From: an uncultured Nitrospirales bacterium
GTDB taxonomy: Bacteria > Hydrogenedentota > Hydrogenedentia > Hydrogenedentales > GCA-2746185
DNA length: 64,000 nt
Direction of reading: 5' to 3'
NCBI GenBank assembly: GCA_964620045.1
Contig: CAZUJL010000011.1
Location: 31,477-95,476 of the forward strand
Shown: positions 7,545-45,671 of the stretch, piece after piece
How positions within the stretch are numbered: position 1 is the first letter of the stretch
Layout: every line of letters begins with the position of its first letter
Made by a program: the position numbers and the translations under genes
The notes under the pieces: generated by a model
What the model was told of the DNA's origin: nothing
The model's input: the letters and a program-made list of their open reading frames with translations, nothing else
Database searches by the model: none

Positions 7545-8063
7545 CTAGTCGCCGATGGGAATGGGACCGAGACAATCCAGCAGATCGAGGAGCTCGGATT
7601 CGGCACCGAGTGCGACATAAAACTCTCGGCAGCCAGGGCACACCGTGCGGGACTCAAAACTAAACGCGGATTCGTGAAGTTCGCGGTGCCAATGGAACAG
7701 GCAGTGTCGGCGCGGACACTGGAGATCCTCGGGCTCCAGCAGGGCGTTCTCGTTCAGCGCGCCAAGTTGGGTCCGCGCGACGAGGTAGCACGTCCGCATG
7801 TACTCGATGCTGGAGATGCCCGAGTATTTGGCGAGCTCGCGACTTTCCCGGGTCGTGATGCGCGCGAGATTGCGGTTCACGAGATAGACCGGCCGGGGTT
7901 GGGCTTCGTTTGTGAAGCAGAAGTGCACGTGCTTCACAACGAGGTCCTCTGCATGCCTGGGCGAACCGTGTTCGCCCACGAAAAATTGCGCGAGTTCCTT
8001 CAAATCAATAGCGGACTCATAGGTCGAGTACACCGCAATCGGTTTTGCAGCAGGCATAGACAT
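7545..8063 (-). CDS. Hypothetical protein with a C-terminal Cys/His zinc-ribbon-like motif (CPRRHC...H..H...CPGC)
   Basis: ORF 7545..8273. Sequence upstream of 8063 drops to about 35-40% GC, so the start was set at an internal Met (MSMPAAK). The true N-terminus is uncertain. Confidence 0.4.
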   Translation of the reverse strand: MSMPAAKPIAVYSTYESAIDLKELAQFFVGEHGSPRHAEDLVVKHVHFCFTNEAQPRPVYLVNRNLARITTRESRELAKYSGISSIEYMRTCYLVARTQLGALNENALLEPEDLQCPRRHCLFHWHRELHESAFSFESRTVCPGCREFYVALGAESELLDLLDCLGPIPIGD

Positions 8064-8834
8064 CCACGCATGTGTGAGGTTTACGTTGTAATTACCGATT
8101 TGGTCTAGAACATTACAGATTGCCCACGCAAAATTAGTAAATAGCGACTCAACCGGCGATGTTTTTTCATAATTATTGTATTTATTAGCAGGGCCGAACC
8201 TGTTTGCAGAAACCCGCTGAGGCATGGTTCTAAAGGCCGGGCCCGACACAGCAAGGGGACGAAACGCCCTCAATTTGTTTTGCCGGGACTACGTCGAAAT
8301 GCGGATGCGGTTTCTGGTGCACCGCTCCGGCTGCGACATTGCCGAGGAACTGCTCCACGTTCTCAACCAGGTGACACTACAGTCATTCATGGAGCAACAA
8401 AGGGGCTGTCCAATGGGACCGGAAACCACCGCAGCGATCATGTTCTCTCCAGATCCACTTCCAAATAGTTCCCGACAGTGGCAACGTCACCGTCACGAAT
8501 TTTTTGCCCACGAGAGAAGATTTCTTGAACGCCCTTGGTGGACTTGCGTTCAAGGATTATTTTGGCCGCGCGCGAAGCACGTATTCCGCCGCGGAACTGG
8601 GGCTGTTCGCACGCAGACGGCGATTGGGCGTACTACCACGAAGCTGAAGCGGGTGTTGATGGAAACCGAAGCCCCGGATGTGCCGGACGGCGCGGCCTGT
8701 ATATCGACGGAGACCTCCAAGCAGTGCAACGGCGATTCCGGGGCCAGCGATGGTTGCTGATCCAAACCGGAAAATCTGCTCGGCGAATAACGGAGGGTAT
8801 GCGCGAACGCGCGCATTCAGTCAGACTTAAAAGC

Positions 8835-8911
8835 TGGCGTACCCGGAAGGATTCGAACCTCCGACCTCTTGGTCCGTAGCCAAGCGCTCTATCCAGCTGA
8901 GCTACGGGTAC
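8835..8911 (-). tRNA. tRNA-Arg (anticodon ACG)
   Basis: Manual fold: acceptor stem GTACCCG/CGGGTAC, D-arm GCTCAGCTGGATAGAGC, anticodon loop CTACGGA, T-arm GGTTCGAATCC, genomic CCA. Confidence 0.85.
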
Positions 8912-9086
8912 GCAGGAATGGCAGCCGCAGAGTGTAGCAAATGACGGCGGGGCGCTCAACTGCGCGGGCATCTGGCTGACCTGCATGGAAAATTCCGTGG
9001 CGTCCCTGAATGACCGGGCCTGCGCGAGGCGGACTATCCGTATCAAAGATGAGTCCGCTTCTGGAATTTCGTAGTCTTTCCCTGAC

Positions 9087-10811: not shown

Positions 10812-12428
10812 TTAGGGCGCGTTCCCGCCCTTCTTCGCCGTCTGCGCCGGCTCGGCCAGGCAGCACGCACGACCCACCGCGTCGCGCACATCCTTCTTCG
10901 GCGTGCCAGTCACTTCCACGGGGCCTTCGTACGCGGAAATCGCGGTTGCCAGGTCTTTCGAGACGGTTGAAATTTTGTCCGTGTCCACTTGCACCGGGCC
11001 CGAAGACGCGCCATAGGCCACGAGCGCTTCCGTGGAATTAATCGCTTCGCGCCAGCGCGACAGTTCGCCGCCGATCGTGAGTGCCGGTGACGGCATCACC
11101 GGACGATCGCGCACGGCTTCCGACAACGCCTGGAAGGCGAACAGGTCCACCTGCGCGCGCGTCACGTTGAACTTTTCCAGCACGTCGTCTGGCATCGTGG
11201 ACGGGCCGACGACGAAGAACGTGTAGCCCATGCCCGCCAGTTTCTCGGCGGCTTTCTTCACCTGTTCGCGCGCCTGCGGCTTGCTCAAATCGAGCCAGCG
11301 CGTACCATCCGCGGCGGCCACGGTCCAATCCTTCGTCTCGTCCGTCGCCAGCGGATCAAACGTAATCCCCGGTTTCATGCCGCGCTTCACAAGTTCGCCG
11401 GCCACCTTGCTCATGTCTTTCGGGTAACCCGGTTCCTTGCCCTGCAACGAACCCGAGGCCGCCTGCCAACCCGCCGGCACCAGCACGTGGTCCACGGAAT
11501 GATCCACCCACGCCTCGGCGATTTTGTACACTTCGGCCGCGGGCGCACCGCGCTGCGCCGTCGCCCAGCCGCGCGGGGCCACCGGGCCTTGCGCAGGCTG
11601 ACGGCCTTGCGCATCCGCCCACGCGTAAAACTTCGAAACTTCGCCCGCCTGCGGCACAAACTGCGACATCCATACCGGGTCGCAGCCAACCTTCGTGCCC
11701 GGCTTGATCGCGAGCAGCGGCAAGTAGCGGCAATGCACGGCGCCCACATACGACTTGCCGGAGGGCTGGAGATCGACCGACGAATTCATCATGCCCGACT
11801 GCAGCAAGCCAATGCCGAGTGTCATCGCGGGTTTCTTCACTTCGAACACAACCAGGCCGGCCGAGGCGCCGTCGTTCACGACCGAGTAGTTGCCGCGGCG
11901 CTGTGTGCGCGCCTGGGTCACCACGGTCGCATCGCCGATATCGGCCACCGCGCCCGGATCGAACACCACCGGCCGCACTTCCTTGATCAGCACGGGTTTC
12001 TTACCCAGGTTTGTCATGTTCAGATGCACCAGCATCGCGGGGTGGTCCAGCAGCCGCGATACGGAGAAGTCGATTTCGAGCTCATCGGGCGTCACGAAGA
12101 CAGAATGGAAGCGGGTGCCCTTACCGAGCGGGCCATCGAAGGATTCCCGGGAATCGCGCACGGCCTTCAGCGAGCTCAGGCGCAGCACGCGGCCGTCGGC
12201 ATACTCCAGCTCGCACTGCGCGTCCTTCACGAGCACGCCCAAGCCGTTGACCTCGATCATCCATTCGGCGGTCTGCACGTCGACTTTCAGGACCGAACGA
12301 TCGCCCTCGAATGAATAGTGGTCACGCAGCGCCCACGGCTTGTAATCCGCTTTCGGCGCATCGGCCGCCATGGCAGCGCCAGCAACAGCCAGCAGCGCCA
12401 ACCCAAGGCACACCCGGAATTTACACAT
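10812..12428 (-). CDS. Secreted protein of unknown function
   Basis: Start at MCKFRVCLGLALLAVAGAAMA (signal peptide) with a GGGGG Shine-Dalgarno just upstream. Long, well-balanced ORF; translationally coupled to ispE. Confidence 0.6.
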   Translation of the reverse strand: MCKFRVCLGLALLAVAGAAMAADAPKADYKPWALRDHYSFEGDRSVLKVDVQTAEWMIEVNGLGVLVKDAQCELEYADGRVLRLSSLKAVRDSRESFDGPLGKGTRFHSVFVTPDELEIDFSVSRLLDHPAMLVHLNMTNLGKKPVLIKEVRPVVFDPGAVADIGDATVVTQARTQRRGNYSVVNDGASAGLVVFEVKKPAMTLGIGLLQSGMMNSSVDLQPSGKSYVGAVHCRYLPLLAIKPGTKVGCDPVWMSQFVPQAGEVSKFYAWADAQGRQPAQGPVAPRGWATAQRGAPAAEVYKIAEAWVDHSVDHVLVPAGWQAASGSLQGKEPGYPKDMSKVAGELVKRGMKPGITFDPLATDETKDWTVAAADGTRWLDLSKPQAREQVKKAAEKLAGMGYTFFVVGPSTMPDDVLEKFNVTRAQVDLFAFQALSEAVRDRPVMPSPALTIGGELSRWREAINSTEALVAYGASSGPVQVDTDKISTVSKDLATAISAYEGPVEVTGTPKKDVRDAVGRACCLAEPAQTAKKGGNAP

Positions 12429-12570
12429 GAATACCCCCTGAAAAACTGCCCCAAAAAGCCAGCCCATTTCCCTTTACATTATACCGGACTATCCGGCATC
12501 GTGTGTAAAACCGTCTTAAAGCGCGACGGGTCGGACTTGGTGCGCCGCGGTTGCGGCATGATGTGGATTT

Positions 12571-14340
12571 TTGGTGGAAAACCCGATCGGTAAAGGACTT
12601 GCAGACTTCGCGGCCGCCCTCAATCGGCTGGACGAAGCCCTCGTCCTTGCGCCCGGCCTACACGATCGTGTGTTCGGTGGCACCCAGCCTTGGCGCGACC
12701 TGCTGACCTACAAACTCGTGCCGCATATGGCGGGCGCGGGCTGCCTGGTCGCGGCGGTGACCGGGGGGACGAACACCGGCAAGTCCACGGTTTTTAACCT
12801 GATCATCGGCCGGGCCGCCAGCCCCATCGTGAACACGGCGGCCGCCACCTGCCACCCCGTGCTCGCGGCAAATGCGCAGCGCCGGGCCGAGTGCCTAGAA
12901 GCCAAGCTGGTGCCCGAGTTCCAGCCGCGTCCACTGGAAAACCCCGGTCAGGCGACCGATGGCAGCTTGCCGGCCGAGGCGTTGTTCGTGGTGCTGGAAC
13001 CGTCCCTGCCGGATCACCTCGTCGTCATGGACACGCCCGATATCGACTCGATCGAAAAGCGCAACTGGGATGTCGCCGCGCATTTGCGCGCCGCGGGCGA
13101 CGTGATGGTGGCGGTGCTCACGGGCGATAAATACAAAGACGAGCGCGTGGTGGACTTTTTCCGGCATGCGGTCGCCGCCGACCGTGTTGTGATCCCGGTG
13201 ATGAACAAGGCCAACCCGGAAAACAGTTTCGATGTCGCGCGGCGGCAGCTCGCCGAGTTCCGCAAGGACACCGGCACAAGCGCTCCGGGATTCACGATTG
13301 CCCACGACTTCCACATCGGCAACAACCTGAAGCGGCCGATCGCGGCGATCGACGGCGCGGGCGATCTGCGCGCACACCTCGAATCGCTGGATGTGCCCGC
13401 GATCAAAGCGCGTGTGTACGAAGGAACAGTCCGCCGTTTCGCCAGTGAAGCGGAGGGGTTTCTTGCCAATCTTGAGATGAATGCCGGCGGCCTGCAACAG
13501 GTCACTTCGGCCTTTCACACGATTGCCGAGACCGCTTCGCACCAGTACGATCCGGCCCCCGGCAAGGAAGTCGGCGGACTCTTCCACGCCTTTGTGCAGT
13601 CCAAGCGCGGGCCGGTCCGCCGCACGATCGGGGCCACCAGCGCCACGTTTGCGCGGGGCGTCGGCGCGGCGGGGCGGTTCGTGCGTTCGGCGTTCGTCAA
13701 GCGCGCCACGATGGACTCGCCCGAAGACGAACAGGCCACGGATGCGCTGCACGCGGTGCACCGTGAAACCATCACGCGGATCGCGCGCGAAACCGCCGCC
13801 GCCTGCGCCGAGCGCGCGCGCACGATCGCCTCGCCGGCGCGCGAGATGATCGGGAATCGTTTCGAGCAGCTCGATGCCGAAGCCGCGGCCGAGGCCGTTG
13901 CCGCGGAGGTATTGAAAGCCGTCCCGGTTTCGGAAGCCTTTGCACAACACGCGCAGCAGATGCTCGAAACCTGGTGGACCGATCACAAAGGCCGCCGCCG
14001 CGCCCTCGAAGCGCTTGACGCGGTGCTCGCCGTGATGCCGGCCGCGATCGCCGCGCCTTTTGCCTTGCACACCGGCGGCCTCGGCGCCGCCGAGGCCGTG
14101 TTGCTGGCGGGACCCGTCGCCGCGCAGTTCGCCACGCGCGTGATGGAATTCCAGTTCGGCGACGCGCTCTTCGATTTCCTTTCGCCGTGGAAAGCCGAGC
14201 AGCAGACACGCCTGCGCGACGCGCTGCTGCGCCATATCGTCCATGCCGGCACGCAGCCGGTGGACGCCGCGGTCGACGCCATGTCTGGCGACAATGCCGC
14301 CCAGCTTAGGAGCGCCCTCGACGCATGCCATACTCGCTAA
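12571..14340 (+). CDS. Bacterial dynamin-like GTPase (first of a pair)
   Basis: P-loop GGTNTGKST, DTPDIDS (G3), NKAN (G4-like), and a long helical C-terminal region. Confidence 0.75.
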   Translation: MVENPIGKGLADFAAALNRLDEALVLAPGLHDRVFGGTQPWRDLLTYKLVPHMAGAGCLVAAVTGGTNTGKSTVFNLIIGRAASPIVNTAAATCHPVLAANAQRRAECLEAKLVPEFQPRPLENPGQATDGSLPAEALFVVLEPSLPDHLVVMDTPDIDSIEKRNWDVAAHLRAAGDVMVAVLTGDKYKDERVVDFFRHAVAADRVVIPVMNKANPENSFDVARRQLAEFRKDTGTSAPGFTIAHDFHIGNNLKRPIAAIDGAGDLRAHLESLDVPAIKARVYEGTVRRFASEAEGFLANLEMNAGGLQQVTSAFHTIAETASHQYDPAPGKEVGGLFHAFVQSKRGPVRRTIGATSATFARGVGAAGRFVRSAFVKRATMDSPEDEQATDALHAVHRETITRIARETAAACAERARTIASPAREMIGNRFEQLDAEAAAEAVAAEVLKAVPVSEAFAQHAQQMLETWWTDHKGRRRALEALDAVLAVMPAAIAAPFALHTGGLGAAEAVLLAGPVAAQFATRVMEFQFGDALFDFLSPWKAEQQTRLRDALLRHIVHAGTQPVDAAVDAMSGDNAAQLRSALDACHTR

Positions 14341-15980
14341 CCGATCTCTTCCGCCAGCTCGAGGGTCTCGCCGCGTACCAAGGACCCTGGGCGCCGCTGC
14401 GGCAGGAAGCCCCGCTGTTGCAGACGCGGCTGGCGGAACTCCGCGAGCGCGAGGTGCGGTTGGACGACCTGCTTGTGGTCGCGCTGGTGGGCGGTTCGGG
14501 TGTGGGCAAATCGACGCTGCTGAACGCGCTCGCCGGCGATGAACTCGCCAAAACGTCCGAGTTCCGCCCCTGCACTTCGGTGCCGACCGTCTACCATCCG
14601 CCGGGCGCGCGTCTGCCGTTTGGCGAAGGCTGGGTGGCGAAATCCGGCTCGGCGCTGGAACATCTCGTGATTGTCGACACGCCCGACTCCGACACGATCG
14701 CGCGCGAGCATCGCGTACTGGTGCAGGCGGCGTTGCGCGAATGCGACTTGATCCTCGTCTGCGCGGATTCGGAGAAATATCTCGACGAGGCCACGTGGTC
14801 GCTGCTGCGTCCGCTGAAGGACGAGCGCGCGCTTGTGTGCGTGGAAACCAAAGGCTCACCGGCGGCCAGCATCCGCGAGGATTGGCTGCGCCGGCTCAAA
14901 GCCGAAGGCTTCCGTGTCTCTGGGTATTTCCGCGTGAACAGCACGCGCACCTTTGACCGCAAGATTTCCGGGCGCGCGCCGGCGGCTGACGAATACGAGT
15001 TCCAGGGTCTTGAGACCTTTCTCGCGAACGAACTGACCGCCGACCGCATCCGCCGAATCAAGCGCTCGAACACGGCCGGGTTGCTGACGAAAACCGTGCG
15101 CACGCTCGACGAGCGCGTGGCCGCGCGTACGCCCGATCTCGCCCGCGCCGATCAGGTATTGCGCGAAGCGGAGACGGCCCTCGCCAAGGACGGTTTCGAC
15201 GTCGTCCGGCGGCGGCTGTTCAGCGAGCCGCATCTGTGGAACTACGCGCTGGGCCGTGAAATCAGCGTGCGCTCCAAGGGCGTTGTCGGCCTGTTGTACC
15301 GCGTGGTGGAGGCTGCGCGCTCATTGCCGGCGCGCTTGGCGGGTTGGTCGCCGTGGTCGCTGCGCTCCACAACCGGCCATCGCGCGGCGACGCTGCTTGG
15401 CGAAGGCGGCCTGCTCGACGCGCCGCTCGATCTCGGCTCTACCGAATTGCGGCGGCGCTTCGACGATCACGCGAGCACCGTGCGTGTGGCGCTGGCCCAG
15501 GCCGGTTTCGATGGCGGCGCGGATACGCAAAATTTTGATCGGTACGCGGCGGTGCTCGCGCGCGGCGTGGAGGAGGTCCTGCGCGGGCCGGCGCGCGAAC
15601 GCGTGGTGGCGCGCGCCCGAATCCTGAGCAGTTGGCCGATCGCGCTGGTGCTGGATGCCGCGCCGATCGCGTTTTTCGGCTACTCGGCGTATGCGCTGGT
15701 GCGCGATTACTTCTCGCAGGTGTATTGGAGCGCGGGCGAACTGGTGCATGCCGCGACGGTGCTGGGCATCATCCTCGCCGCGGAGCTGCTGTTGTTTTCG
15801 ATCGCGACTCGCATGCTTGCGTGGGGCGCACGCACGGGCGCGTCACGCGATTTACGCCTCGCCTTGGCGCCGGGCATCGCGGCGTTTACCGATGAACACG
15901 GGGCCATCGCACACGCGCAGGCCCTCGCCGCGGAGATTCAGGCTATCCAGCACAGCCTCGATCACGAAGCTGCGCGGTAG
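14325..15980 (+). CDS. Bacterial dynamin-like GTPase (second of a pair) with C-terminal hydrophobic segments
   Basis: P-loop GGSGVGKSTLLNAL and DTPDSD. Its start overlaps the upstream stop by 16 nt. Two predicted transmembrane/paddle segments near the C-terminus. Confidence 0.75.
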   Translation: MPYSLTDLFRQLEGLAAYQGPWAPLRQEAPLLQTRLAELREREVRLDDLLVVALVGGSGVGKSTLLNALAGDELAKTSEFRPCTSVPTVYHPPGARLPFGEGWVAKSGSALEHLVIVDTPDSDTIAREHRVLVQAALRECDLILVCADSEKYLDEATWSLLRPLKDERALVCVETKGSPAASIREDWLRRLKAEGFRVSGYFRVNSTRTFDRKISGRAPAADEYEFQGLETFLANELTADRIRRIKRSNTAGLLTKTVRTLDERVAARTPDLARADQVLREAETALAKDGFDVVRRRLFSEPHLWNYALGREISVRSKGVVGLLYRVVEAARSLPARLAGWSPWSLRSTTGHRAATLLGEGGLLDAPLDLGSTELRRRFDDHASTVRVALAQAGFDGGADTQNFDRYAAVLARGVEEVLRGPARERVVARARILSSWPIALVLDAAPIAFFGYSAYALVRDYFSQVYWSAGELVHAATVLGIILAAELLLFSIATRMLAWGARTGASRDLRLALAPGIAAFTDEHGAIAHAQALAAEIQAIQHSLDHEAAR

Positions 15981-15986
15981 CGTCCA

Positions 15987-17984
15987 TTAGTTCGACGGCG
16001 CCGGGTTTTCCGCAGCCGGTGTTTCCGCAGCGGGCGCTGCAGCGCCTTCAGCCGGAGCAGCTTCTGGAGCGATCTGAACTTCTGGCGTATCGGCGGCCGG
16101 GGCCGACGCAGTCGCCGGCGCCGCGGCCGGGGTCGTCGACAGCGGTTCAATCTGCAGAATCTGGTAAATCAGGTCTTCGTCTTCCTGCACCAGCGCCGCA
16201 TCGACGAATTTCGTGCGCAACTGCTGCATGTAATCCATCTGCAACTGCTGGCGGCGCGTGCGCACGACGTCCTCGCGAATGGCGGCCTTTTCCGTGGCGT
16301 ACTGCTGTTCCCACGTATCGCCCTCGGGCACGGTTTTCTCCACCACTTCGACGAAATGCGGGATCTGCAGCATGTCGTAAATCGGGCCGCCGAACTCGCC
16401 GGGGTTCTTGTTTACCAGGCGCTCGAGGAGCCGCCGGCCTTCCATGAACAGGCCCTGCTGGAACAGCATGTCGTTCAGACCGAAGGATTCGGTTTCCTTG
16501 ATTTCGACGTCCAGCTCGGGGAATTTCGCCTTCATGTCCTCCAGGCTCTTGCACTCCTGCTGGACCTTGATCACGTATTCGGCGACTTTTTGCCGGTAGT
16601 CGGGCGTTTGTTTTTGCTGCGCGACCGCGGACAGGCGCGCGTCTTCTTTTGCTTCCTCGTACGCACGCTGCGCGGGCGGCACGATCTCGACGATCTCGGC
16701 CACGTACACGTTGTGCGTGCCTTCGATCACCGGCGACACAATACCCATGGTGAGCTGCAGGGCATTGCTGCGGAAGGCCAGCATGTCTGCCTCGTCGATG
16801 TTTTCAATTTCAGAGGACTTATTGCTGAACCGACCGGTCTTCTTGGCTTCGAGGCCCTCGGCGGTGGCCAGCGCCGCGATGCTCAGCGACTCGGCCTTCG
16901 CTTTCGCGGAAAGCGCCGTCGCGCGTTCCATCCGCGCGGCGCGTTCCGCATCCGGCAGCTCCGCGCGCAGCACGATTTGCCGTGCTTTCACTTCGCGCAC
17001 GCCGTCCACAGTACGGGTTTCTTCAACTTTGTAGATGTGCCAGCCGATGAAGCTCTCGATCGGGCCGCGGATTTCGCCGACGGCCATTTCGAACAGCGGC
17101 TTTTCGTGGTCGCGCAGCGCGGGGGATTCCTTGATCCACTCCATCTCGCCGCCCTTGTCCGCGTCGATGCCTGAGGAATTTGTGCGCGCCAGTTCGGCGA
17201 AGTCCTCTCCGTTCTTGGCGCGGGTGATGAGTTCCTCCGCGAGAGGCGGCACGGGCGCGCGCAGCGAAATCGCGATGAAATCCGCCGTGCGTTCTTCCGG
17301 CGTCATGAATTCGACGAGGTTGGCGTCGTAGTAGGCCTTGATCTGTTCTTCGGTGAGTTCAACCTTCGGCGCGACCGCGGCGGCCTTCACTTTCATCGTG
17401 GTGTTGCGCGCGTAGAACTGCTGCTTTACTTCGCTCTCGGGCACGCGCACCGCGGCGCCAATCAAGGCCATGTACTTCTGGCGGTTGACCTGCTCGGCCA
17501 TGCCGGCGAAGATCTCGTCCCAGTTCGCGCGAACCTGGTTCTGGCGCTCCACCCACTGGTTGTACAGGCCCGGATCGAATTCCCCTTTTTCATTCTGGAA
17601 GCTGGGGTCCTTGCGCAGGGCGTCTTCCAAATACGCCTGGCTCGGGTGAATCGGTTCGTGCTTCGTCTTTTCGGTCACCAGCGCTTCTTCAATCAGCGCG
17701 TCCATGATCAGGCCGACCGTGCCGTCGTCCACCATGTCGCGCGCGCTCGCCGGCTGGCCGAACTGATTGCGCTGGTCTTGCACCATCATGTAGCGGTTCA
17801 CGAAGGTCTGCGCGGTGACGGGTGTCTTGCCGACCATCGCCACCGGCTGCTCCGCCGAGGCGCCTCCGCGGAAACGGTTCAGCTTGTTCACGCCGGGGAT
17901 GAAGAGCAGCATCGGCACGCCGATAAACAGCAGAATGAAAAGGCCCACAAGGCTCTTGTGGCGGTGAAGTTGGTTCAAAAGCAC
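15987..17984 (-). CDS. ppiD: Periplasmic chaperone PpiD/SurA-like with a parvulin PPIase domain
   Basis: N-terminal TM anchor, SurA_N-like region, a parvulin-like segment (GGEMEWIKESPA...) and an acidic/Ala-Pro-rich tail. Confidence 0.7.
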   Translation of the reverse strand: MLLNQLHRHKSLVGLFILLFIGVPMLLFIPGVNKLNRFRGGASAEQPVAMVGKTPVTAQTFVNRYMMVQDQRNQFGQPASARDMVDDGTVGLIMDALIEEALVTEKTKHEPIHPSQAYLEDALRKDPSFQNEKGEFDPGLYNQWVERQNQVRANWDEIFAGMAEQVNRQKYMALIGAAVRVPESEVKQQFYARNTTMKVKAAAVAPKVELTEEQIKAYYDANLVEFMTPEERTADFIAISLRAPVPPLAEELITRAKNGEDFAELARTNSSGIDADKGGEMEWIKESPALRDHEKPLFEMAVGEIRGPIESFIGWHIYKVEETRTVDGVREVKARQIVLRAELPDAERAARMERATALSAKAKAESLSIAALATAEGLEAKKTGRFSNKSSEIENIDEADMLAFRSNALQLTMGIVSPVIEGTHNVYVAEIVEIVPPAQRAYEEAKEDARLSAVAQQKQTPDYRQKVAEYVIKVQQECKSLEDMKAKFPELDVEIKETESFGLNDMLFQQGLFMEGRRLLERLVNKNPGEFGGPIYDMLQIPHFVEVVEKTVPEGDTWEQQYATEKAAIREDVVRTRRQQLQMDYMQQLRTKFVDAALVQEDEDLIYQILQIEPLSTTPAAAPATASAPAADTPEVQIAPEAAPAEGAAAPAAETPAAENPAPSN

Positions 17985-18209: not shown

Positions 18210-18285
18210 GGGGGTATAGCTCAGTTGGGAGAGCGCTTCGCTGGCAGCGAAGAGGTCAGGGGTTCGACTCCCCTTACCTCCACCA
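18210..18285 (+). tRNA. tRNA-Ala (anticodon GGC)
   Basis: Manual fold: GGGGGTA acceptor, D-arm GCTCAGTTGGGAGAGC, anticodon loop CTGGCAG, T-arm GGTTCGACTCC, CCA encoded. Confidence 0.85.
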
Positions 18286-33604: not shown

Positions 33605-34133
33605 GTTTCATCATCTCCTCGGGGACCGAAGAGACGCAGATCGGGGATGGTGTGAGAACGGACTTACGCGGATGGGCGAAGCGGTGCGGTCATAAAATCG
33701 ATGTACCGCCCTGGATCAAGGCTCACTCGTTGTGCTTCGCCGAAACTACAGATCGCGGCAGTCGTGCCGCGCATCCGTCGTTCTTCGGCGGAGCGGTCAA
33801 GGCAAACGCCTGTCATTCACCAACCTATCGCTAAACGCCCCGTGAAGGGACGAAGTCACGTTCTCTGGCGCAAATCGCGCCAACCGGTCCGCCGCGCACG
33901 AGCGCCGCGTCCTCGTTGCGTCTTTGGGTCACCCAGTCAGTTTCTACTCGGTGATGTATATGTGTAACGGCGATTGGCTTACTTCCGCCCCAAATCGCCG
34001 ACGGGCCATTATAGGGAGCGCTGGCAGGGCAGTCAATGAAATCTGGCCTTCAGGCCCCTGTTTGATCCGGCCCTGCGCTTCACGCTACTTTCGCGTCACG
34101 AAGCCTGCGTCGGATCCTCACGCCAAGGAAGCC

Positions 34134-36134
34134 ATGGCCCCGAACGACCCCACCATCAACGACGCCGAGGCGCTGGTTCGCCAGCAAATCGTGTCCTCTG
34201 AAGACATGGCCGAGGCCCTCAAGCGCGAAGAAGCTGGCGGTGCGCCGTGGTATCGCCAGCTTGTGCACATGCGCAAGCTCAGCTTCGGCAATGTCAGCGA
34301 CATCCTCCATTACGAATTCCATTCGCCGGCCGCGCGGCAAAGCCATGCGCAGCTCGGCGAAGCGCTCGTACACTCCAACGTGCTCACGCAGGAGCGTCTG
34401 CAGGAGGCGCTCGCGCTGCAAAAGCGCAGCGGCAAACTGCTCGGCTCCGTTCTGGTGGATGCCGGGTTCGTCACGCCGGATCAGATCGCGCAAGTCCTGG
34501 CTGCGCAGTACGGCCTCGAGTACGTCCCGCTCGACAAAACGCCCAGCCGCCGCGAGGCGCTCGACCTTGTGCCGGAAAACATCGCCGTGCAAAAGGCGCT
34601 TATTCCCGTGCATGTCGAGGGCGATCGCCTCACGGTCCTGATTACGGGTCCACAAGCCCCCGATCGCCTGAAGGCGGTCGGCATTCTGCTGGGCGTGCGC
34701 GTGCACCCGAAGATGACGGCGGTCGCCGACCTCGAAGCCGAAATCAAACGGCGCTATGAGGGGCGGCCGAAGCACCTACACGCACCCGCGCCGGCTCCCG
34801 CACCGGCGGCCAAGGCGCCTCCCAAACCTGCACCGCCCCCGGCCCCGCCGCCGGCCGCTGCGCCTGTGGCTGCAGCACCCGTGGCAAAACCGGAATCGCC
34901 GAAACCAGCGCCGACCAAGGAAACAAAAAACATGACGCAGAACGAAACATCCGAGCCGAAACGCTTCGAAGAAATCGCGCGCGAAGCCCAGGGCGTTCCG
35001 GTGGTGAAGCTCGTGACCACCATCATCGAGGGCGCGGTGAACTCCGGCGCCACGGACGTGCACCTCGATCCACAGGACCCCGAGATGCGCGTGCGCTACC
35101 GCATCGACGGCGTGCTGCACGACGTGATGAGCATTCCACGGGACATCGAGAGCGCGGTCGTCTCGCGTCTGAAAATCATGGCCGACATGGACATCACCGA
35201 AACGCGCCGGCCGCAGGACGGCCACATCAGCATGACCATCGGCGAAGGCGAGTTCGATATCCGCATCGCGACGCTGCCCGCGTTCCTCGGCGAACGCATC
35301 GTGCTGCGCCTCTTGGACCAGTCCTCGGTGCTGTCGGGGATCCGCGATCTCGGCCTCGAGCCGGACGACGAGAAGCGGCTCCAGCGCATTATCGAGCAGC
35401 CCTACGGCATGATTCTCGTGACCGGCCCCACGGGCAGCGGTAAAACGACGACGCTTTACTCCTGCCTGAACGAAATGGATGTGCTCACGCAAAGCATCGT
35501 CACGCTTGAAGACCCGGTCGAATACCAGCTCTCGGGCATTAACCAGGTGCAGATCGATCCGGATATCGATCTCACCTTTGCCAACGTGCTGCGCGCCTCG
35601 CTGCGCCAGGACATTGACGTTCTGCTCGTCGGCGAAATTCGCGACCCCGAGACCGCGCGCATCGCGATCCGCGCCGCGATGACGGGCCATCTGGTTTTTA
35701 GCACCCTGCACACCAACGATGCGCCGGAAGCTATTTCAACACTGCGCAACATGGACGTGCCGTCGTACCTTGTCGCGTCGGCGCTCACCGCAATCATCGC
35801 GCAGCGCCTGGTGCGCTGCATCTGCACCGAATGCAAAACAGCGTATACCCCGACGAAGCCGTTGCTGAATTCCATCCGTCTGCCTGAGACGACGAAAAAA
35901 CTTTACAAGGGCGCCGGTTGCAGCAACTGTTATCACACGGGTCACCACGGCCGCACGGGTATCTTCGAAATCCTCGAACTCAATGAAGCCATCCGCAAAA
36001 TGGTGGTCGCCGACGATCCGGTGGAAAAAATCGCGAAGGCCGCGAAGCTGCAAACCATGGCCGATCGCTGCCGGACGAAGGTGAAAAATGGTGAAATTAC
36101 CGCCGAGGAATTTCTGAACGTCATCCGGACGTGA
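34134..36134 (+). CDS. GspE/PilB-family secretion ATPase with two N-terminal T2SSE_N/MshEN-like domains and a Pro/Ala-rich linker
   Basis: Walker A GPTGSGKTT, Asp box, Walker B DVLLVGEIRD, His box, and a tetracysteine motif (CTECK...CSNC). AAGGAAG RBS before the ATG. Confidence 0.85.
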   Translation: MAPNDPTINDAEALVRQQIVSSEDMAEALKREEAGGAPWYRQLVHMRKLSFGNVSDILHYEFHSPAARQSHAQLGEALVHSNVLTQERLQEALALQKRSGKLLGSVLVDAGFVTPDQIAQVLAAQYGLEYVPLDKTPSRREALDLVPENIAVQKALIPVHVEGDRLTVLITGPQAPDRLKAVGILLGVRVHPKMTAVADLEAEIKRRYEGRPKHLHAPAPAPAPAAKAPPKPAPPPAPPPAAAPVAAAPVAKPESPKPAPTKETKNMTQNETSEPKRFEEIAREAQGVPVVKLVTTIIEGAVNSGATDVHLDPQDPEMRVRYRIDGVLHDVMSIPRDIESAVVSRLKIMADMDITETRRPQDGHISMTIGEGEFDIRIATLPAFLGERIVLRLLDQSSVLSGIRDLGLEPDDEKRLQRIIEQPYGMILVTGPTGSGKTTTLYSCLNEMDVLTQSIVTLEDPVEYQLSGINQVQIDPDIDLTFANVLRASLRQDIDVLLVGEIRDPETARIAIRAAMTGHLVFSTLHTNDAPEAISTLRNMDVPSYLVASALTAIIAQRLVRCICTECKTAYTPTKPLLNSIRLPETTKKLYKGAGCSNCYHTGHHGRTGIFEILELNEAIRKMVVADDPVEKIAKAAKLQTMADRCRTKVKNGEITAEEFLNVIRT

Positions 36135-36522: not shown

Positions 36523-37632
36523 ATGAAGATCATCATCCCGAAGCAGGATTTACTGGACGCGGTCAATAAAGTGAAGACGGTAGTGTCCGCGAAATCCGCG
36601 TTGCCGATCCTCTCTCACATCCTCATCGAAGCGGAAAAGGGAAAGATTCATCTTTCCGCGACGGATTTGAAAGTCAGTCTGGAATGCACAGTTGATTGTG
36701 AAGTGAAGAAAGCCGGTTCATTGACGGTGTCTTCACAGCGTCTTGCATCCATCCTGGCTGAGCTTCCGGATTCGGATATCACGATTGAACTGGGTGAAAG
36801 CAATGTGATTCGCATTGAATGCGGGAAAATCCACACCCGCTTGTTCAGTATGTCACCCGAAGAGTTCCCGCCCGCGCGGCAGTTGGAAGATGTGGAGCCG
36901 CTGGTTCTGCCACAGAAGTTACTCCGGGATATTTTTGAGAAGACCTCTTTCGCGATTTGCACCGACCAGGCCCGCTACAACCTTACAGGACTTTTGATGG
37001 AGCTCAAGAACGGCGTGCTTACCGCCGTGGCCACGGATGGTCGCCGCATGAGCCTTTACAAGGAAGATGAAGGCATCATCGATGGTGTCAACGTAAAGGT
37101 GATTGTTCCGGGAAAATTGATCCAGGAATTGATGCGTTTGCTGGGTGATGAAGGTGATGTGCAGGTGTATTTCGGCGAGAATCAGGCCGCCTTCGAGTTT
37201 GATTCACTCCGCTTGACGACGGCCCTTATCGAAGGTTCGTTCCCGAATTACGAGATGGTCGTGCCGCAGAAGCACGACAAACAGGCCAAGGTCGATACCG
37301 CTGCCTTTATCGAAGCGGTACGCCGTACGCGCACAATGACCAACGAAAAATTTAACTCCGTTCGCTTTAAGCTCGACAACGGACTAGTCCGCCTGAGCGT
37401 AGTAACCCCTGAAGTTGGTGAATACGAAGAAGAGCTGCAACTCGAGTACAAGGGCGACACAATCGAGATCGCGTTCAATCCTGATTTCCTGCTTGATATT
37501 CTCAAACACATCAACTCTGATTCATCCATCTTGGTGCTGAAGGACGCGATGAGCCCGGGCATCGTAAAGCCGGTGGCCGAGAACGGCACCGACAAGTACA
37601 TCAACGTCGTGATGCCAATCCGCATATCCTGA
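36523..37632 (+). CDS. dnaN: DNA polymerase III beta sliding clamp
   Basis: MKIIIPKQDLLDAVNKV...ILSHILIEA..., about 369 aa, typical DnaN. Confidence 0.9.
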   Translation: MKIIIPKQDLLDAVNKVKTVVSAKSALPILSHILIEAEKGKIHLSATDLKVSLECTVDCEVKKAGSLTVSSQRLASILAELPDSDITIELGESNVIRIECGKIHTRLFSMSPEEFPPARQLEDVEPLVLPQKLLRDIFEKTSFAICTDQARYNLTGLLMELKNGVLTAVATDGRRMSLYKEDEGIIDGVNVKVIVPGKLIQELMRLLGDEGDVQVYFGENQAAFEFDSLRLTTALIEGSFPNYEMVVPQKHDKQAKVDTAAFIEAVRRTRTMTNEKFNSVRFKLDNGLVRLSVVTPEVGEYEEELQLEYKGDTIEIAFNPDFLLDILKHINSDSSILVLKDAMSPGIVKPVAENGTDKYINVVMPIRIS

Positions 37633-40462: not shown

Positions 40463-40552
40463 GGAGAGATGGCCGAGTGGCTGAAGGCGCTCGCTTGGAA
40501 AGCGTGTGTACGTGAAAACGTACCGAGGGTTCGAATCCCTCTCTCTCCGCCA
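40463..40552 (+). tRNA. tRNA-Ser (anticodon GGA) with a long variable arm
   Basis: Manual fold: GGAGAGA acceptor, D-arm GCCGAGTGGCTGAAGGC, anticodon loop TTGGAAA, long variable arm, T-arm GGTTCGAATCC, CCA encoded. Confidence 0.8.
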
Positions 40553-40949
40553 TTCAAGGCTACGAAAATTCTCCCCTGGCGAAATGCGCCGTGACGACTA
40601 CCGAACGGCTGCATGACCAGGCGAAGAAGTTTGCTGACCCTACGCCCTCGACAGCCTAGCAATATGCCATACTGCTCTGCCGTGCAAGATGCACCAATTC
40701 CACATGCGCTAGCGGTTCCGCCAAGATGTCGCCCCAAACACCGGAAGTGCTCTCATAATGTCTATGAGACGAGGTCGAGAATGGGCAGTGGTGATCCTGC
40801 GGTGAGAACCCGCAATGATTTCCACTTTGAGGCCGGCTGTAAAGTGTGATGAACCCAAAGACAAATCTGCCACACACTGGGCGTTGCGCGTGAAATCCCG
40901 TTTAGAGTCTCTGCGACCGAAGAACGCATCAATAGGCCTCCGCGAAAGC

Positions 40950-42677
40950 ATGCCTCATGACGAATTTCTGCGGAGAATCTATATCGGTTGCGCGATTGCG
41001 GCCGTTGCCACGAAGATTTGGCTTACCTTGGCGTTTCAGATGCGTGCCGCGAATACGCCGGCCGATGATCTGTTGTATATGCGGTTAGCAGAGCAAATTC
41101 TCCATGGCGAGTGGCTCGGCCATTATGATCAGTACACGCTGGCAAAAGGACCGTTCTTTTCCATCTGGATTGCCGGCGCGTTCCTTCTCAATATTCCGCT
41201 GTTATTGTCCTACCAGCTTCTACATGCCTTGGCGTGTGTGCTGATGATAATCGCGCTCATGCCGTTACTTCGCCCAAGATTCCTCTGCTTGGCGCTCTTT
41301 CTGTTGCTCCTCTTCGATCCGTCTACATACAGCCCGATCGCATCATGGGTAATCCGTGAAAGCATCTATGCTTCTCTGACGATGATGGTTTTGGCGGGAA
41401 TGATCGCGCTGATTGTGAGACTCGAACGGCGTCCCGGCGCGCTTGTGTTTTGGGCTATCGAACTTGGGATAGCTGCCGGCGCATTTGCAACGTTGCGCGA
41501 AGAGGGCGTTTGGATACTGCCCGCGGTAATATTGGCGTTGCTCTACGCCACGATAATGATCTGTCGTACGGACCGACAAAGGACTGCGAAGTTGGCACTT
41601 GTTTTCATGCCCGCTGCAATCGCGGTCGCATGGGTTCTCGGCATCTGCACGCTAAACCAGCGCTATTACGGAATATTCGAGGTAACCGATTTTAAGAGCG
41701 AAGGCTTCTTGCGAGCGAACGGAGCGCTGATGCGCGTGAAGCATGCCGAAATAAACCAATTCGCGAATGTGCCCAAAGAAGTACGAGAAAAAGTATATAA
41801 GGAGAGCCCCACATTCGCCGAGTTAGAAGTTTACCTTGAGGGTCCCTTGGGGCAAGCGTGGGGAAAGATCTCGGAGAAATGGCTCTCCGGAGGCACCCCC
41901 AACGCGGCCGATATTCGCGGCGGTTTCTTCGTGTGGGCCATGCGCGACGCGGTCGGGAGACTGGGCCATTACCAAACGGCCGCGGAAACAGACGCCTATT
42001 ACACGAAAGTGGCAAACGAAATTAATTCGGCTTGCGACGCGGGCAGACTTGATTGTTGGGCGGAGCGTTCGTCCCTTTTGCCTCCCTGGCGCCGCAGTTT
42101 ATTTACACCCGCAATCGCGAGCATTCGTAAGGGAGTTCGCATGGTGGCAACGCTCGACGAGCTTGATCCGGGTAACATGCCCACGCAAGGGTCCGCCGAT
42201 ATTGCGGTTATGTTCGAGGATTTGGGCCGTTCGCGCCTTAGCCCGCGGGTGTTTCATTCTGAGGAGACTCCGCGGTTAGCAAACCAAGCGCAATTGGACA
42301 AATTTCGATTCGGGGTATTGAATCGGTTGAATCATGCGTTCCGGGTCTTATGGCCTTTCGCGACGGCTGTTGGCTGCTTGTCCTTTCTAATTGCTTGCGT
42401 GATCGAGGTTCGGGTGCGCACATTCGATCCCGTTTTGCCCATTCTCATGGTTTTGATTGCGTCTTTCGCCGCCCGATTGGGAATTCTCGCGCTGGTTTCC
42501 ATCACCTCGTTCGAAGCCATGCAATATCGCTTGCTGCTGCCCGTGTATCCCATGGTGATCCTGTTTTGGTTTCTTTCGACGTATCGCGCGGGAAAGCTCG
42601 GCATTTCGCACCTTTCTGCCGCGCGACGGAGTAGACGCGAAGATGAGAAGTCGGAATTGTCGTCCCGTGCCGGATGA
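40950..42677 (+). CDS. GT-C fold membrane glycosyltransferase (ArnT/PMT-like)
   Basis: A first-loop acidic motif ADDLLYMRLAEQILHGEW resembles ArnT DExRYAEIxREML. Multiple TM helices. About 52% GC. The start could be as early as 40815. Confidence 0.5.
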   Translation: MPHDEFLRRIYIGCAIAAVATKIWLTLAFQMRAANTPADDLLYMRLAEQILHGEWLGHYDQYTLAKGPFFSIWIAGAFLLNIPLLLSYQLLHALACVLMIIALMPLLRPRFLCLALFLLLLFDPSTYSPIASWVIRESIYASLTMMVLAGMIALIVRLERRPGALVFWAIELGIAAGAFATLREEGVWILPAVILALLYATIMICRTDRQRTAKLALVFMPAAIAVAWVLGICTLNQRYYGIFEVTDFKSEGFLRANGALMRVKHAEINQFANVPKEVREKVYKESPTFAELEVYLEGPLGQAWGKISEKWLSGGTPNAADIRGGFFVWAMRDAVGRLGHYQTAAETDAYYTKVANEINSACDAGRLDCWAERSSLLPPWRRSLFTPAIASIRKGVRMVATLDELDPGNMPTQGSADIAVMFEDLGRSRLSPRVFHSEETPRLANQAQLDKFRFGVLNRLNHAFRVLWPFATAVGCLSFLIACVIEVRVRTFDPVLPILMVLIASFAARLGILALVSITSFEAMQYRLLLPVYPMVILFWFLSTYRAGKLGISHLSAARRSRREDEKSELSSRAG

Positions 42678-42777
42678 TGGGCATCAGAATCCACTCATCG
42701 GCTAGTGAGCACGTGTTGTAGTATTCGAACTCGTTACTTGGTTCTGCGTGGATCTCTGAGATTCTTTGCCAACTCCC

Positions 42778-43947
42778 TCAATGTACGGCGATTGGCGGCG
42801 TCGCGGTCTCGTGAAGGTCTGTCAGAATCGCTTGAGCGATGTAGCCGCCGGCGACGCTGGCGCCCTGCGCATTAAAGTGGCAGTCGTCAACGAAAAACTC
42901 GGCGCGGCCGTTCATAAACGACAGATCGACGATAGGCGCTTCCATTTCGCGGCAAACCTGCAGACTGACTGAGTTCAGCATGTCCGCCAACTGCCGAAGA
43001 CTGGACGTGCTCAGAAACTGGCCGGCAATCGCGGTTCGTCCGGTCCAGATGCGGCGTTCGTCCTCCTCCGGCAAATCATTTGCCCAGAGCACGGCTTGAG
43101 TCACGAATACCGGCCTAATCTTCAGCCGCTTGCACGTCGAAATAATCGCTTCTATAGTCGATCGATACTCTCGCAAGAAATCCTGTGGCGATGGAAAGTC
43201 ATCCACTAGAACCGATGCCGTACTGTTCCCAAACAGGCCTAAGCGGGCGCCGGTCATCAGGGCCGGCGGTGGATTTCCGCGTGATGGGGGCGCAGGGGCA
43301 CCACCTTCAGCCCCGCGCACGTTCGCGCCGACCCACGCGAGCACATCGTTTATTCCGATCAGGAAGACAAGGTGGGTATACCGGGGCACGGAAGCATCCG
43401 TATGTAGGTATTCCAAATGGTGTTTCGACAAGTACCCCGGGATCCCCGCACCTCCGACCCAGGCCGGGCTTGCAGGCAGGCGCCGATTCATTTCATTCAT
43501 GACAACATGAGTCCATGCTTCTGAATCGTCGAGATAGGCGCACTGCGTGACGCTATCGCCGACACACAGTATGCGATACAGCTTCTCTCGATTGAACTCG
43601 GGACCACGGATTCCTTCCGAATTTGTTGAGTAAATGCGCCGTGGCGTTTCGTGGAGACCCGACAGGCTGATCGACAGATTTGGCGTGACAAAGTGGAATT
43701 TCGGCTTTGGTGCGCTAACGAGGTTCCATCGGTCGCTGAACGTAAAGTGCCGATCGACAAAAATGCCATATCTCAGGGGAGCAAGGCGTAAGGAATCGAT
43801 GCTCCACGTCCAGACGGGGAATTTTGCCTTTGGGGTGGGCGAGGATTGCGTTTGAGTCTGGACGTACCACACTGACGGGAGCAGCAGAATAACCAGGAAT
43901 CCTGCGATCCGCGCGATGTATATAAACTTGAGCAAGATTGAAGGCAT
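42778..43947 (-). CDS. SGNH/GDSL hydrolase (polysaccharide O-acetyl transferase/esterase-like, AlgJ/PatB-like)
   Basis: N-terminal TM anchor, then the block I motif LCVGDSVTQ, block III LIGINDV and block V DDCHFN (DxxH). Confidence 0.6.
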   Translation of the reverse strand: MPSILLKFIYIARIAGFLVILLLPSVWYVQTQTQSSPTPKAKFPVWTWSIDSLRLAPLRYGIFVDRHFTFSDRWNLVSAPKPKFHFVTPNLSISLSGLHETPRRIYSTNSEGIRGPEFNREKLYRILCVGDSVTQCAYLDDSEAWTHVVMNEMNRRLPASPAWVGGAGIPGYLSKHHLEYLHTDASVPRYTHLVFLIGINDVLAWVGANVRGAEGGAPAPPSRGNPPPALMTGARLGLFGNSTASVLVDDFPSPQDFLREYRSTIEAIISTCKRLKIRPVFVTQAVLWANDLPEEDERRIWTGRTAIAGQFLSTSSLRQLADMLNSVSLQVCREMEAPIVDLSFMNGRAEFFVDDCHFNAQGASVAGGYIAQAILTDLHETATPPIAVH

Positions 43948-43950
43948 CGG

Positions 43951-45429: not shown

Positions 45430-45671
45430 TCTCCTGAACGGCTGTGCCGCGCAACCGACGGATGTCAGAGCATGGAGGCGCAACGCGGCCGAACGATGTG
45501 TTGGAAATCAGTCTCGCGTCGACAATGTCCGCCCGGGTGCTCTGAGCGCAGTCCGAAAGTATACTCGAATTCAGAGAATTGGACGGCAGAGAAGAGTTCG
45601 AGCGCAACTCGCTACACAGCCATACACACGCCTCTCATCCTTGCTGACGAGTTCGGCCGCGCAGGACGCTT

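Follow-up and report, generated by a model that had tools for sequence, protein, structure and literature searches.

The 64-kb window analysed here (the whole stretch of 64,000 nucleotides taken from contig CAZUJL010000011.1) carries on its plus strand two consecutive large genes, which we call A and B and which are predicted to code for a pair of dynamin-like NTPases of two different types. According to the list of open reading frames (ORFs), gene A (A-type, 12571..14340) codes for 589 aa from a TTG start and gene B (B-type, 14325..15980) for 551 aa from an ATG start. The public protein identical to A begins one codon later, with a GTG at 12574, and has 588 aa; the position of the A start is therefore uncertain by one codon. 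The two genes overlap by 16 nt (14325..14340), from the ATG of B at 14325-14327 to the TAA of A at 14338-14340, and both the gene lengths and the overlap are as the initial annotation of this region had reported them. Within the 3' end of A, 12 nt before the B ATG, there is a Shine-Dalgarno-like AGGAG (14308..14312).

The local GC content is 64-68%, and at such values a long ORF alone proves little. We conclude that A and B are real genes, and not chance ORFs of GC-rich DNA, because the databases hold 269 homologues of A and 523 of B, nearly all of the best 120 listed for each being full-length (48-100% identity), and because relatives were found in 138 genomes (see below). The GC content of the pair is not different from that of its surroundings. 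There is also an antisense ORF of 654 aa (12895-14859, minus strand), wholly inside the span of A plus B, which we have taken for a by-product of the high GC content (a shadow ORF) and not for a gene. A promoter scan of 12300-16200 found no plus-strand sigma-70-like promoter upstream of A, and the terminator-like sites in the same interval were at chance level only. A and B are paralogous: hhalign aligns residues 62-341 of A with 51-317 of B (probability 98%, E 2.5e-13), a region that comprises the G domain and the first long stalk helix. No further copy of either family was found within the window.

Predicted fold and domain architecture

Both proteins were modelled with AlphaFold2 from alignments of 39 sequences for A and 40 for B, and the models are reasonably confident (for A, predicted local distance difference test, pLDDT, 79 and predicted template modelling score, pTM, 0.68; for B, pLDDT 82 and pTM 0.67). 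Each begins with two to three N-terminal helices, followed by a compact alpha/beta G domain (about residues 56-245 in A and 48-215 in B), around 300 residues of long helices and, in the C-terminal part, a hydrophobic helical hairpin and then one or two final long helices. In A, the three N-terminal helices (12583..12717; residues 5-49, modelled as 5-24, 28-35 and 39-49) would be part of the neck, or helical bundle 1 (HB1). A aligns over 305 residues with the GTPase plus HB1 construct of Fzo1, that is, beyond the limits of its ~190-residue G domain. The C-terminal long helices of A (14158..14334; residues 530-588, modelled as 530-572 and 574-588 with pLDDT >90) are by position like a GTPase effector domain (GED), and the last, amphipathic helix of B (15888..15974; residues 522-550, modelled as one helix, 522-550) is by position GED- or HR2-like. 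A neck (bundle signalling element, BSE, or HB1) built from N- and C-terminal helices and a helical trunk (stalk/HB2) are found in the models of A and B.

The best structural matches of the models of A and B are to the proteins Fzo1, MFN2, BDLP1, Cj-DLP1/2, IniA, SynDLP and EHD4. In a Foldseek search against the PDB, every one of the matches of A at E<=1e-3 (37/37) belongs to the dynamin superfamily or to the related IRG GTPases: BDLP1 (the top match, 7.5e-9), Cj-DLP1/2, SynDLP, Drp1/Dnm1, OPA1 and dynamin-1, together with IniA, Fzo1, MFN1/2, EHD4, MxA and Irgb6. Structures of Era and YphC matched A only beyond E 1e-3. From these models we consider it very probable that A and B have the architecture of the dynamin superfamily. 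The initial annotation had described a dynamin-like pair with long helical regions, and its description agrees both with the helices modelled after the two G domains and with the identity of the best structural matches.

Among sequence profiles, Pfam MMR_HSR1 was above its cut-off for both proteins. The search with Dynamin_N (PF00350), which had been proposed as a check of the initial annotation, bore it out for B (37.1 bits, gathering cut-off 27) but not for A (21.8 bits). NCBIfam gave weak matches, under cut-off, to the slr1306-family and to CrfC (CrfC with B), and scores of only 10-29 bits for Era, Der, YsxC and MnmE, against cut-offs of 116-380. Sequence searches of the PDB, either with single sequences or with family profiles, yielded EngA, Era, Toc34 and BDLP (bacterial dynamin-like protein), for the most part with matches at the level of the P-loop; for this reason we have discarded them as a classifier, beyond their use in confirming the position of the G4 motif.

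These searches bear on a different explanation, by which A and B would be ribosome-associated GTPases of the Era/EngA/YihA type (MMR_HSR1) with long helical tails. It would be in keeping with the MMR_HSR1 matches of both proteins, with the PDB sequence searches that put EngA/Der and Era first, and with source names that include '50S ribosome-binding GTPase'. However, most of those PDB matches are confined to the P-loop region, the NCBIfam Era and Der scores (12-29 bits) stand against cut-offs of 116-307, and there is neither a KH domain nor a second G domain in A or B. The full-length fold searches rank the dynamin superfamily first, and the ~350-residue helical bundle and the hydrophobic hairpins are without counterpart in GTPases of this type. 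We give this explanation hardly any credence. The initial annotation had named, as what would refute it, a placement of both proteins in an Era/EngA-type family devoid of stalk or paddle regions; this was checked and not borne out, the models of A and B having a dynamin-like fold that includes such regions.

Nucleotide-binding site

The conservation of the nucleotide-site motifs was examined in 39 orthologues of A and 40 of B. The two P-loops (G1) pointed out in the initial annotation are present: GGTNTGKST in A (12763..12789, residues 65-73), of which G65, G66, T67, N68, G70, K71 and S72 are invariant, and GGSGVGKST in B (14490..14516, residues 56-64), which is invariant. The form GGTN[VT]GKS is a mark of A-type proteins in other phyla too. 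Between G1 and G3 each family has an invariant Thr (T93 in A, T84 in B), whose putative G2 role is suggested by position. It lies within the putative switch I/G2 segment, TAAATCHP in A (12835..12858, residues 89-96; T89, A90, A91, A92, T93 and P96 invariant) and RPCTSVPT in B (14565..14588, residues 81-88; R81, P82, C83, T84 and P87 invariant).

The DTPD sequences are also where the initial annotation had seen them (A 154-157, B 118-121), but its reading of them as G3 motifs does not hold, the family-defining G3 being DxxG. In A, this non-canonical G3/switch II is DTPDIDSI (13030..13053, residues 154-161, after the beta-strand 150-154), with D154, T155, P156, D157, D159, S160 and I161 invariant, and in B it is DTPDSDT (14676..14696, residues 118-124), likewise invariant. 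Asp occupies the position of the DxxG Gly in 39/39 orthologues of A and 40/40 of B. The G4, at the end of the next-but-one strand after G3, is degenerate in both proteins. That of A reads NKAN (13204..13215, residues 212-215) and is found at the end of the strand 206-214, the MMR_HSR1 match ending at 213; its fourth position is N in 37/39 orthologues and D in 2/39. That of B reads TKGS (14847..14858, residues 175-178; HMMER aligns ...CVETK with the ...VVNK of the NKxD of Der), and here 19 of the 40 orthologues have S at the fourth position, 9 have D and 4 have A.

All dynamin-like proteins (DLPs), bacterial ones included, share a G1 GxxxxGKS/T, a T/S at G2, a G3 DxxG and a G4 that is either RD or N/TxxD (PMC5827413), and LeoB has been described as having a 'classical DXXG' motif (PMC4159319). 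Since the G3 Gly is replaced by Asp and the G4 Asp is absent in both A and B, neither the name GTPase nor canonical membership is established. Because the defining DxxG was tested and not found, we describe A and B as dynamin-like in fold and in probable mode of action, and do not call them canonical BDLP GTPases.

With the B family as query, a profile search of the full library retrieved 3,843 clusters at E<=1e-3, 1,561 at <=1e-10 and 104 at <=1e-30; the 1,561 clusters (at 50% identity) include more distant GTPases. Aligned to the B profile, 113 full-length representatives display a G1 GG[TS]GxGKS, a G2 RP[CT]T and a G3 D-x-P-D-x-D-[ST]. Because D stands at the G3 Gly position in 112 of these 113 distant representatives, DxPDxD[ST] appears to be a signature of the clade. 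The canonical G4 [NT][KRH]xD is present in 85/113 of the wider B-type relatives, so that a B protein without the G4 Asp is mainly a feature of the Hydrogenedentota, the phylum of nearly all close relatives (see below). The A-type proteins of other phyla have GGTNVGKS and DSPDIDS, and the G4 of A-type relatives elsewhere is degenerate in nearly all cases (NKGA, NKCT or NLLP).

In GTPases, the backbone amide of the G3 glycine contacts the γ-phosphate and the G4 Asp specifies guanine. A D-to-N change at G4 moves the specificity to xanthine nucleotides, and YchF/OLA1, with a degenerate G4, uses ATP. EHD4, a dynamin-fold protein that uses ATP, ranks high structurally for both A and B. To judge from these motifs, the pair may not be strictly GTP-specific. 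A may be a specialised or regulatory subunit, because the A-type G4 is degenerate in nearly all the lineages examined.

The same degeneracy would suit an explanation in which the pair is a membrane-anchored nucleotide switch or scaffold, like CrfC, that would recruit or regulate some other machine, with one or both subunits catalytically dead and with no remodelling of the membrane. E. coli CrfC binds the clamp, and a dynamin-like GTPase partner system is reported to signal to the cyclase DgcE. The replaced G3 Gly and the missing G4 Asp of both proteins are consistent with such a role, as is the weak NCBIfam match of B to CrfC; moreover, LeoA alone binds no nucleotide (PMC4159319). Nevertheless, the P-loop Lys and Ser, the Walker-B Asp and the switch-I Thr are invariant in both families, which suggests retained binding and hydrolysis, and no conserved third gene is found that would suggest a client. 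Membrane-active members, besides, share the hydrophobic tips and the BDLP topology of A and B. We regard the switch or scaffold as unlikely.

Hydrophobic segments

Both proteins have a hydrophobic stretch that separates their middle helices from the last helix. In A it is a helical hairpin (13999..14148, residues 477-526; helices 473-488, 490-501 and 504-526), a predicted paddle or membrane-insertion element, with a maximum 19-residue mean of 1.93 on the Kyte-Doolittle (KD) scale (family-mean maximum 1.76); its helices were modelled with low pLDDT. In B, two hydrophobic helices (15621..15830, residues 433-502; KD maximum 2.27, family-mean maximum 2.25) are predicted to form a transmembrane or re-entrant hairpin and were modelled, as helices 437-463 and 470-514, with pLDDT around 90. 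The C-terminal hydrophobic segments that the initial annotation had attributed to the second protein are thus present, but not in B alone.

As judged by hydropathy only, both A and B have a membrane-interaction element before the GED-like helix. The membrane-binding domain of BDLP has the same position, between the middle and the last helices (PMC4159319), and in mitofusin/Fzo1 and OPA1 the membrane-anchoring helices are found at the tip of the trunk (PMC5827413, PMC6104087). The hydrophobicity of the second helix of B would suffice for it to be permanently anchored, as a transmembrane or re-entrant element, and the segment of A looks more paddle-like. We have also observed that two acidic residues of B, D444 and E487, are invariant inside the two hydrophobic helices and that R503 is invariant just after them; these residues may make polar contacts within the membrane or bind a partner.

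Conservation of the operon, distribution and neighbourhood

We have surveyed 85 related loci by tblastn with A and B, and B was found downstream of A wherever the contig reaches far enough. Both genes, in the order A to B, are held by 78 loci from related genomes; in 75 of the 78 the A stop and the B start overlap by 4-28 nt, the relative frame being constant, and the commonest overlaps are 19 nt (25 loci), 16 nt (24) and 28 nt (13). A GGAG-like sequence is found upstream of B, at the same place, in most related loci. The overlap is conserved and not peculiar to one genome, and because it is kept in 75/78 loci the translational coupling of A and B is probable.

Two lineages of Hydrogenedentota have a different arrangement. 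In L037 (2357-3690) and L045 (about 7800-9073) there are two bacterial pleckstrin homology (PH) domain genes between A and B (Pfam bPH_2, E 1e-15 to 1e-18), membrane-flanked and YdbS/YdbT-like, forming four-gene operons in which the genes overlap or abut. No such bPH genes were seen next to the pair elsewhere, whether in the window or in the remaining 80+ loci; by their position, they would link the pair to the membrane. In a third locus, L044, there is no B within 6 kb of A. The A proteins of L037, L044 and L045 keep a canonical G4 (NKAD), and the tight A/B overlap is broken in exactly these three (in two of them by the bPH insertion), a coincidence by which the loss of the G4 Asp in A may correlate with tight coupling to B (n=3).

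A scan of one genome per GTDB species with A as query revealed relatives in 138 species-level genomes, with identities down to 32%, and the listed records of these genomes are nearly all labelled Hydrogenedentota. All named homologues of A or B, among the matches listed, are from Candidatus Hydrogenedentota/Hydrogenedentes. The exceptions among the records of the 138-genome scan are third-party bins ('binchicken' or SRP-derived) titled 'uncultured Nitrospirales/Nitrospiraceae', which carry clear Hydrogenedentota-type A/B pairs, together with a few titled 'uncultured bacterium', 'FCB group bacterium' or 'metagenome', one Rhodothermaeota and one Bathyarchaeia. We suspect that most of these odd-titled bins are taxonomic mislabels or contaminated bins. 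Going by the homologues and by the 138-genome scan, the genome of the window is from the Hydrogenedentota and not from the Planctomycetota-Verrucomicrobiota-Chlamydiota (PVC) group, as the initial annotation had assumed. What survives of the PVC link is the existence of related A/B pairs in Planctomycetota-type contigs (see below). No relatives were found in the viral contigs of IMG/VR.

The flanking genes are not conserved, and four distant genomes have entirely different neighbours. Those in the window are a GHMP kinase (ispE-like), a protein with SurA_N and rotamase domains (PpiD-like) and a PMT/PMT_2 glycosyltransferase. The initial annotation had named these same neighbours and had seen in them an envelope context, which is not conserved: the divergent ispE-like GHMP kinase is upstream in 22/80 species loci, the PpiD-like gene downstream in 5/80 and a PMT/GT39-like gene nearby in 0/80. 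Besides, ispE codes for a kinase of the isoprenoid pathway and is not an envelope gene as such. Because the flanking genes vary among the 80 loci, the envelope neighbourhood has little functional weight, and we have dropped it as a clue since the ppiD and GT39-like genes are not syntenic elsewhere. The gene of the window that is divergent from A (10812-12467, minus strand, 551 aa) codes for a protein that starts with a signal-like hydrophobic stretch and matched no Pfam model; recognisable homologues of it are upstream of A in 14/80 loci, and it is thus, with ispE, partly syntenic with the pair.

The distribution also bears on whether the pair could serve in defence against phages or stress, as a module of the kind of LeoABC/Eleos or with a DynA-like role, that would act on the membrane during infection to delay lysis or to abort the infection. 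B. subtilis DynA reportedly confers phage tolerance, the A/B architecture is of the same superfamily as the paired DLPs that the initial annotation had linked to phage tolerance, and PADLOC gave weak matches to LeoA and LeoBC. These matches are partial (LeoA, 11.7 bits with A and 23.5 with B; LeoBC, 16.7 bits with B) and cover only the P-loop region in B and a short helical stretch in A. The 138 genomes come from essentially one phylum, identity is continuous from 32% to 100% and the synteny with ispE is partly kept, which is the behaviour of a vertically inherited core gene and not that of a mobile island. The neighbours are housekeeping genes, the GC content is not atypical and IMG/VR holds no relatives. 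A defence module seems to us quite improbable. A housekeeping role is favoured over an anti-phage one because the distribution is phylum-wide and apparently vertical and there is no link to defence islands.

Relatives outside the phylum

The arrangement of the pair is repeated in two more distant loci. L088 (4397-7680) has a 533-aa gene and then a 559-aa gene, 2 nt apart, and L090 (4169-7803) a 611-aa gene and then a 600-aa gene with a 4-nt overlap. Against the family profiles the upstream genes are A-type (E 5.5e-35 in L088 and 2.1e-29 in L090) and the downstream ones B-type (E 4.5e-52 and 3.2e-44, respectively). The named homologues of the L090 A-type protein are mostly from Planctomycetota, one of them labelled 'dynamin family protein', and the named wider B-type members are from Verrucomicrobiota and Planctomycetota and labelled 'hypothetical protein'. 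Because L088 and L090 carry the same A-type/B-type arrangement, the A/B duplication and the order A to B would be older than the Hydrogenedentota.

Pairing is not universal. The Verrucomicrobiota relative L086 (7001-8794) is a singleton. L089 (5510-7827), with Planctomycetota-type neighbours, is a B-type singleton placed after a 164-aa hydrophobic protein, with a 4-nt overlap; this small protein has no Pfam match. Farther off, DAPDIDS or DTPDIDS motifs recur, for example in a protein of the actinobacterium Motilibacter aurantiacus that is labelled 'dynamin family protein' and has no sequence relative in the PDB. A sequence link of the clade to IniA/IniC by way of the actinobacterial relative P0455 was looked for and not found, P0455 having no PDB match at E<=0.1.

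A more far-reaching reading, which we put forward tentatively and with more doubt than conviction, is that A and B stand for a large clade of the dynamin superfamily, with a DxPDxD[S/T] switch II and A and B subunits, whose coupled operon is older than the split of Hydrogenedentota and Planctomycetota and whose catalysis or nucleotide specificity is novel. The extra acidic residues would take over the handling of the γ-phosphate or of the cation, and the mechanism or the specificity (ATP or any NTP) would be unlike that of all characterised dynamins. A, which is mostly without the guanine-specifying G4 Asp, would be an obligate non-canonical co-subunit.

Proposed role of the pair

The best explanation for A and B is a self-contained two-gene operon of ancient paralogues with a BDLP/mitofusin-like architecture. 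Most bacterial DLPs are encoded as operon pairs (PMC6104087). Cj-DLP1 and Cj-DLP2 have negligible GTP hydrolysis when alone, and as a 2:2 tetramer they hydrolyse GTP, tether liposomes and bind efficiently to lipid (PMC6104087). For LeoA, with its inability to bind nucleotide alone, heterodimerisation across the G domains has been proposed (PMC4159319). By analogy with these systems, we think it likely that A and B, made at a ratio of ~1:1, are the two different subunits of a dynamin-like pair that is inserted in the cytoplasmic membrane and tethers, fuses or repairs it. With the start and the ribosome-binding site of B inside the end of A, translation would be coupled and would provide about equal amounts of the two proteins. 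Their hydrophobic hairpins would insert into the cytoplasmic membrane and the two subunits would assemble as a hetero-oligomer, on the precedent of Cj-DLP1/2. The G domains of A and B would then dimerise in a nucleotide-dependent manner, which would move the helical bundles and lead to tethering, fusion or resealing of the membrane, the role being one of housekeeping membrane maintenance. Of this scheme, the genes with their motifs and paralogy, the predicted fold, the hydrophobic segments and the conservation of pair and overlap are shown by the data above, and we infer the coupling in vivo, the membrane insertion, the heterocomplex and the membrane remodelling.

Several observations weigh against this proposal. 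A is under the Pfam Dynamin_N cut-off, no NCBIfam model was matched at its cut-off by A or B, and the G domains are compact (~170-190 residues), nearer to an Era-like size. Both proteins depart from DxxG at G3 and are missing the G4 Asp, and their nucleotide binding and hydrolysis are putative. Finally, some relatives are unpaired (L086 and L044), so that pairing is not obligatory.

Paired bacterial DLPs were already known, and the main point of the initial annotation is essentially right; what is new here is a clade with Asp for Gly in switch II and with distinct A and B subunits, the A-type ones examined being nearly all without the guanine-specifying Asp. A literature search retrieved no study of this pair and no experimental work on the DxPDxD[ST] clade, and the one paper retrieved that has both Hydrogenedentes and dynamin in it is a wide-ranging work on evolution. 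The database labels are mostly '50S ribosome-binding GTPase', 'ABC transporter/EcfA2' or 'hypothetical', and, given that they are mostly wrong, re-annotation is warranted. Few paired bacterial dynamins have been studied (BDLP1, DynA, LeoABC, IniA, Cj-DLP1/2 and SynDLP) and their cellular roles are unclear. The invariant Asp at switch II, together with the lost G4 Asp, amounts to a natural experiment on which features of the dynamin nucleotide site are essential, and also on the specialisation of one subunit in a heterotypic pair. If membrane-active, A and B would offer compact subunits of ~550-590 residues and defined stoichiometry for heterotypic tethering and fusion, of relevance to mitofusins.

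Other features of the window

Away from the pair, dnaN (DNA polymerase III beta, with all three Pfam domains) is at 36523-37632, within the patch of lowest GC of the window (36-38 kb, GC 0.51 vs about 0.63). The gene before it is not dnaA but one for a T2SSE/MshEN ATPase (33924-36134). DnaA-box matches near dnaN are scattered (36268, 37649 and 38544) and not above chance, and no clear origin was recognised there. A tRNA-Ser(GGA) at 40463-40552 is followed by a block of lower GC (0.55-0.56). Besides a 620-aa ORF to which no Pfam model matched, this block codes for a GDSL-like lipase/acylhydrolase, for an MBOAT O-acyltransferase and for a protein of 843 aa that has a spermine/spermidine-synthase domain; the stretch (40463-48206) may be an island for polysaccharide O-acylation. 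A tRNA-Arg(ACG) (8835-8911, minus strand) and a tRNA-Ala(GGC) (18210-18285, plus strand) flank the A/B region, and Rfam and ARAGORN gave no matches in the window besides these three tRNAs.

Comparison with known systems

LeoA/LeoB/LeoC of enterotoxigenic E. coli (ETEC) can be likened to A/B in that the DLP genes are in tandem, there is a membrane anchor and the nucleotide site depends on a partner (PMC4159319). Unlike A and B, LeoBC has the classical DXXG and is a split gene (PMC4159319), and the Leo genes are on a pathogenicity island whereas A/B are at a core-genome location; neither A nor B has a full-length PADLOC match to LeoA/LeoBC (the 'Eleos' models). The mycobacterial IniA/IniC (PDB 6j72; PMC6715688) are, like A/B, operon-linked DLP paralogues, and a stress-linked membrane function has been proposed for them. 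IniA binds GTP via D141 of G3 and K200/D202 of G4 (PMC6715688), the G4 Asp being what A and B lack. IniA and IniC belong to the drug-induced iniBAC operon (PMC6715688), whereas the A/B operon has two genes only; no relation at sequence level between the A/B clade and IniA/IniC was found.

BDLP1 of Nostoc punctiforme (PDB 2j68/2j69), the top Foldseek match of A (E 7.5e-9), is also the top PDB profile match of the B family (E 9.7e-6), in the P-loop region only. It is encoded in tandem with BDLP2 (PMC5827413, PMC4159319) and has the same plan of neck, trunk and paddle as A/B. The BDLP1 and BDLP2 genes are 525 bp apart, with a non-coding gap (PMC4159319), whereas those of A/B overlap, and the G domain of BDLP1 is larger. 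Its paddle attaches transiently (PMC6104087), whereas B, to judge from its hydrophobicity, appears to be permanently anchored.

Among eukaryotic proteins, the EHD ATPases (EHD4, PDB 5mtv) illustrate that a dynamin-fold protein can use ATP, which is relevant as A and B are without the G4 Asp. Mitofusin/Fzo1 (MFN1/2, Fzo1 minimal GTPase domain; PDB 9kfd, 6jfk) has the same order of elements (G domain, helices, two hydrophobic helices, C-terminal helix) and is among the best structural matches; its two hydrophobic helices have an analogue in those of B. It acts in a different setting, the outer mitochondrial membrane, its G domain is much larger than those of A/B, and neither A nor B matches the mitofusin-specific Pfam models. 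As far as the models go, the relation would be one of architectural resemblance and not of family membership. The G3 and G4 of mitofusins are canonical (DxxG and NRWD), and EHDs retain a G4 of the NKxD type and carry an EH domain, which is absent in A/B.

The known BDLPs have canonical G1-G4 motifs (PMC5827413), unlike A/B with their G3 DxPD and a G4 without Asp, and this applies also to the system that served as our precedent, Cj-DLP1/Cj-DLP2 of Campylobacter jejuni (PDB 5owv/5oxf; PMC6104087). Sequence identity to it is just 9-15%, the 119-residue assembly domain of Cj-DLP1 has no counterpart in A/B, and the hydrophobic segments of B, unlike those of Cj-DLP1/2, are long enough for permanent anchors. 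Nevertheless, Cj-DLP1/2 are likewise an operon pair of different DLPs side by side, their trunk has a hydrophobic lipid-binding tip, as is predicted for A/B, and their activity in the heterocomplex only is the model that, by analogy, we propose for A and B.

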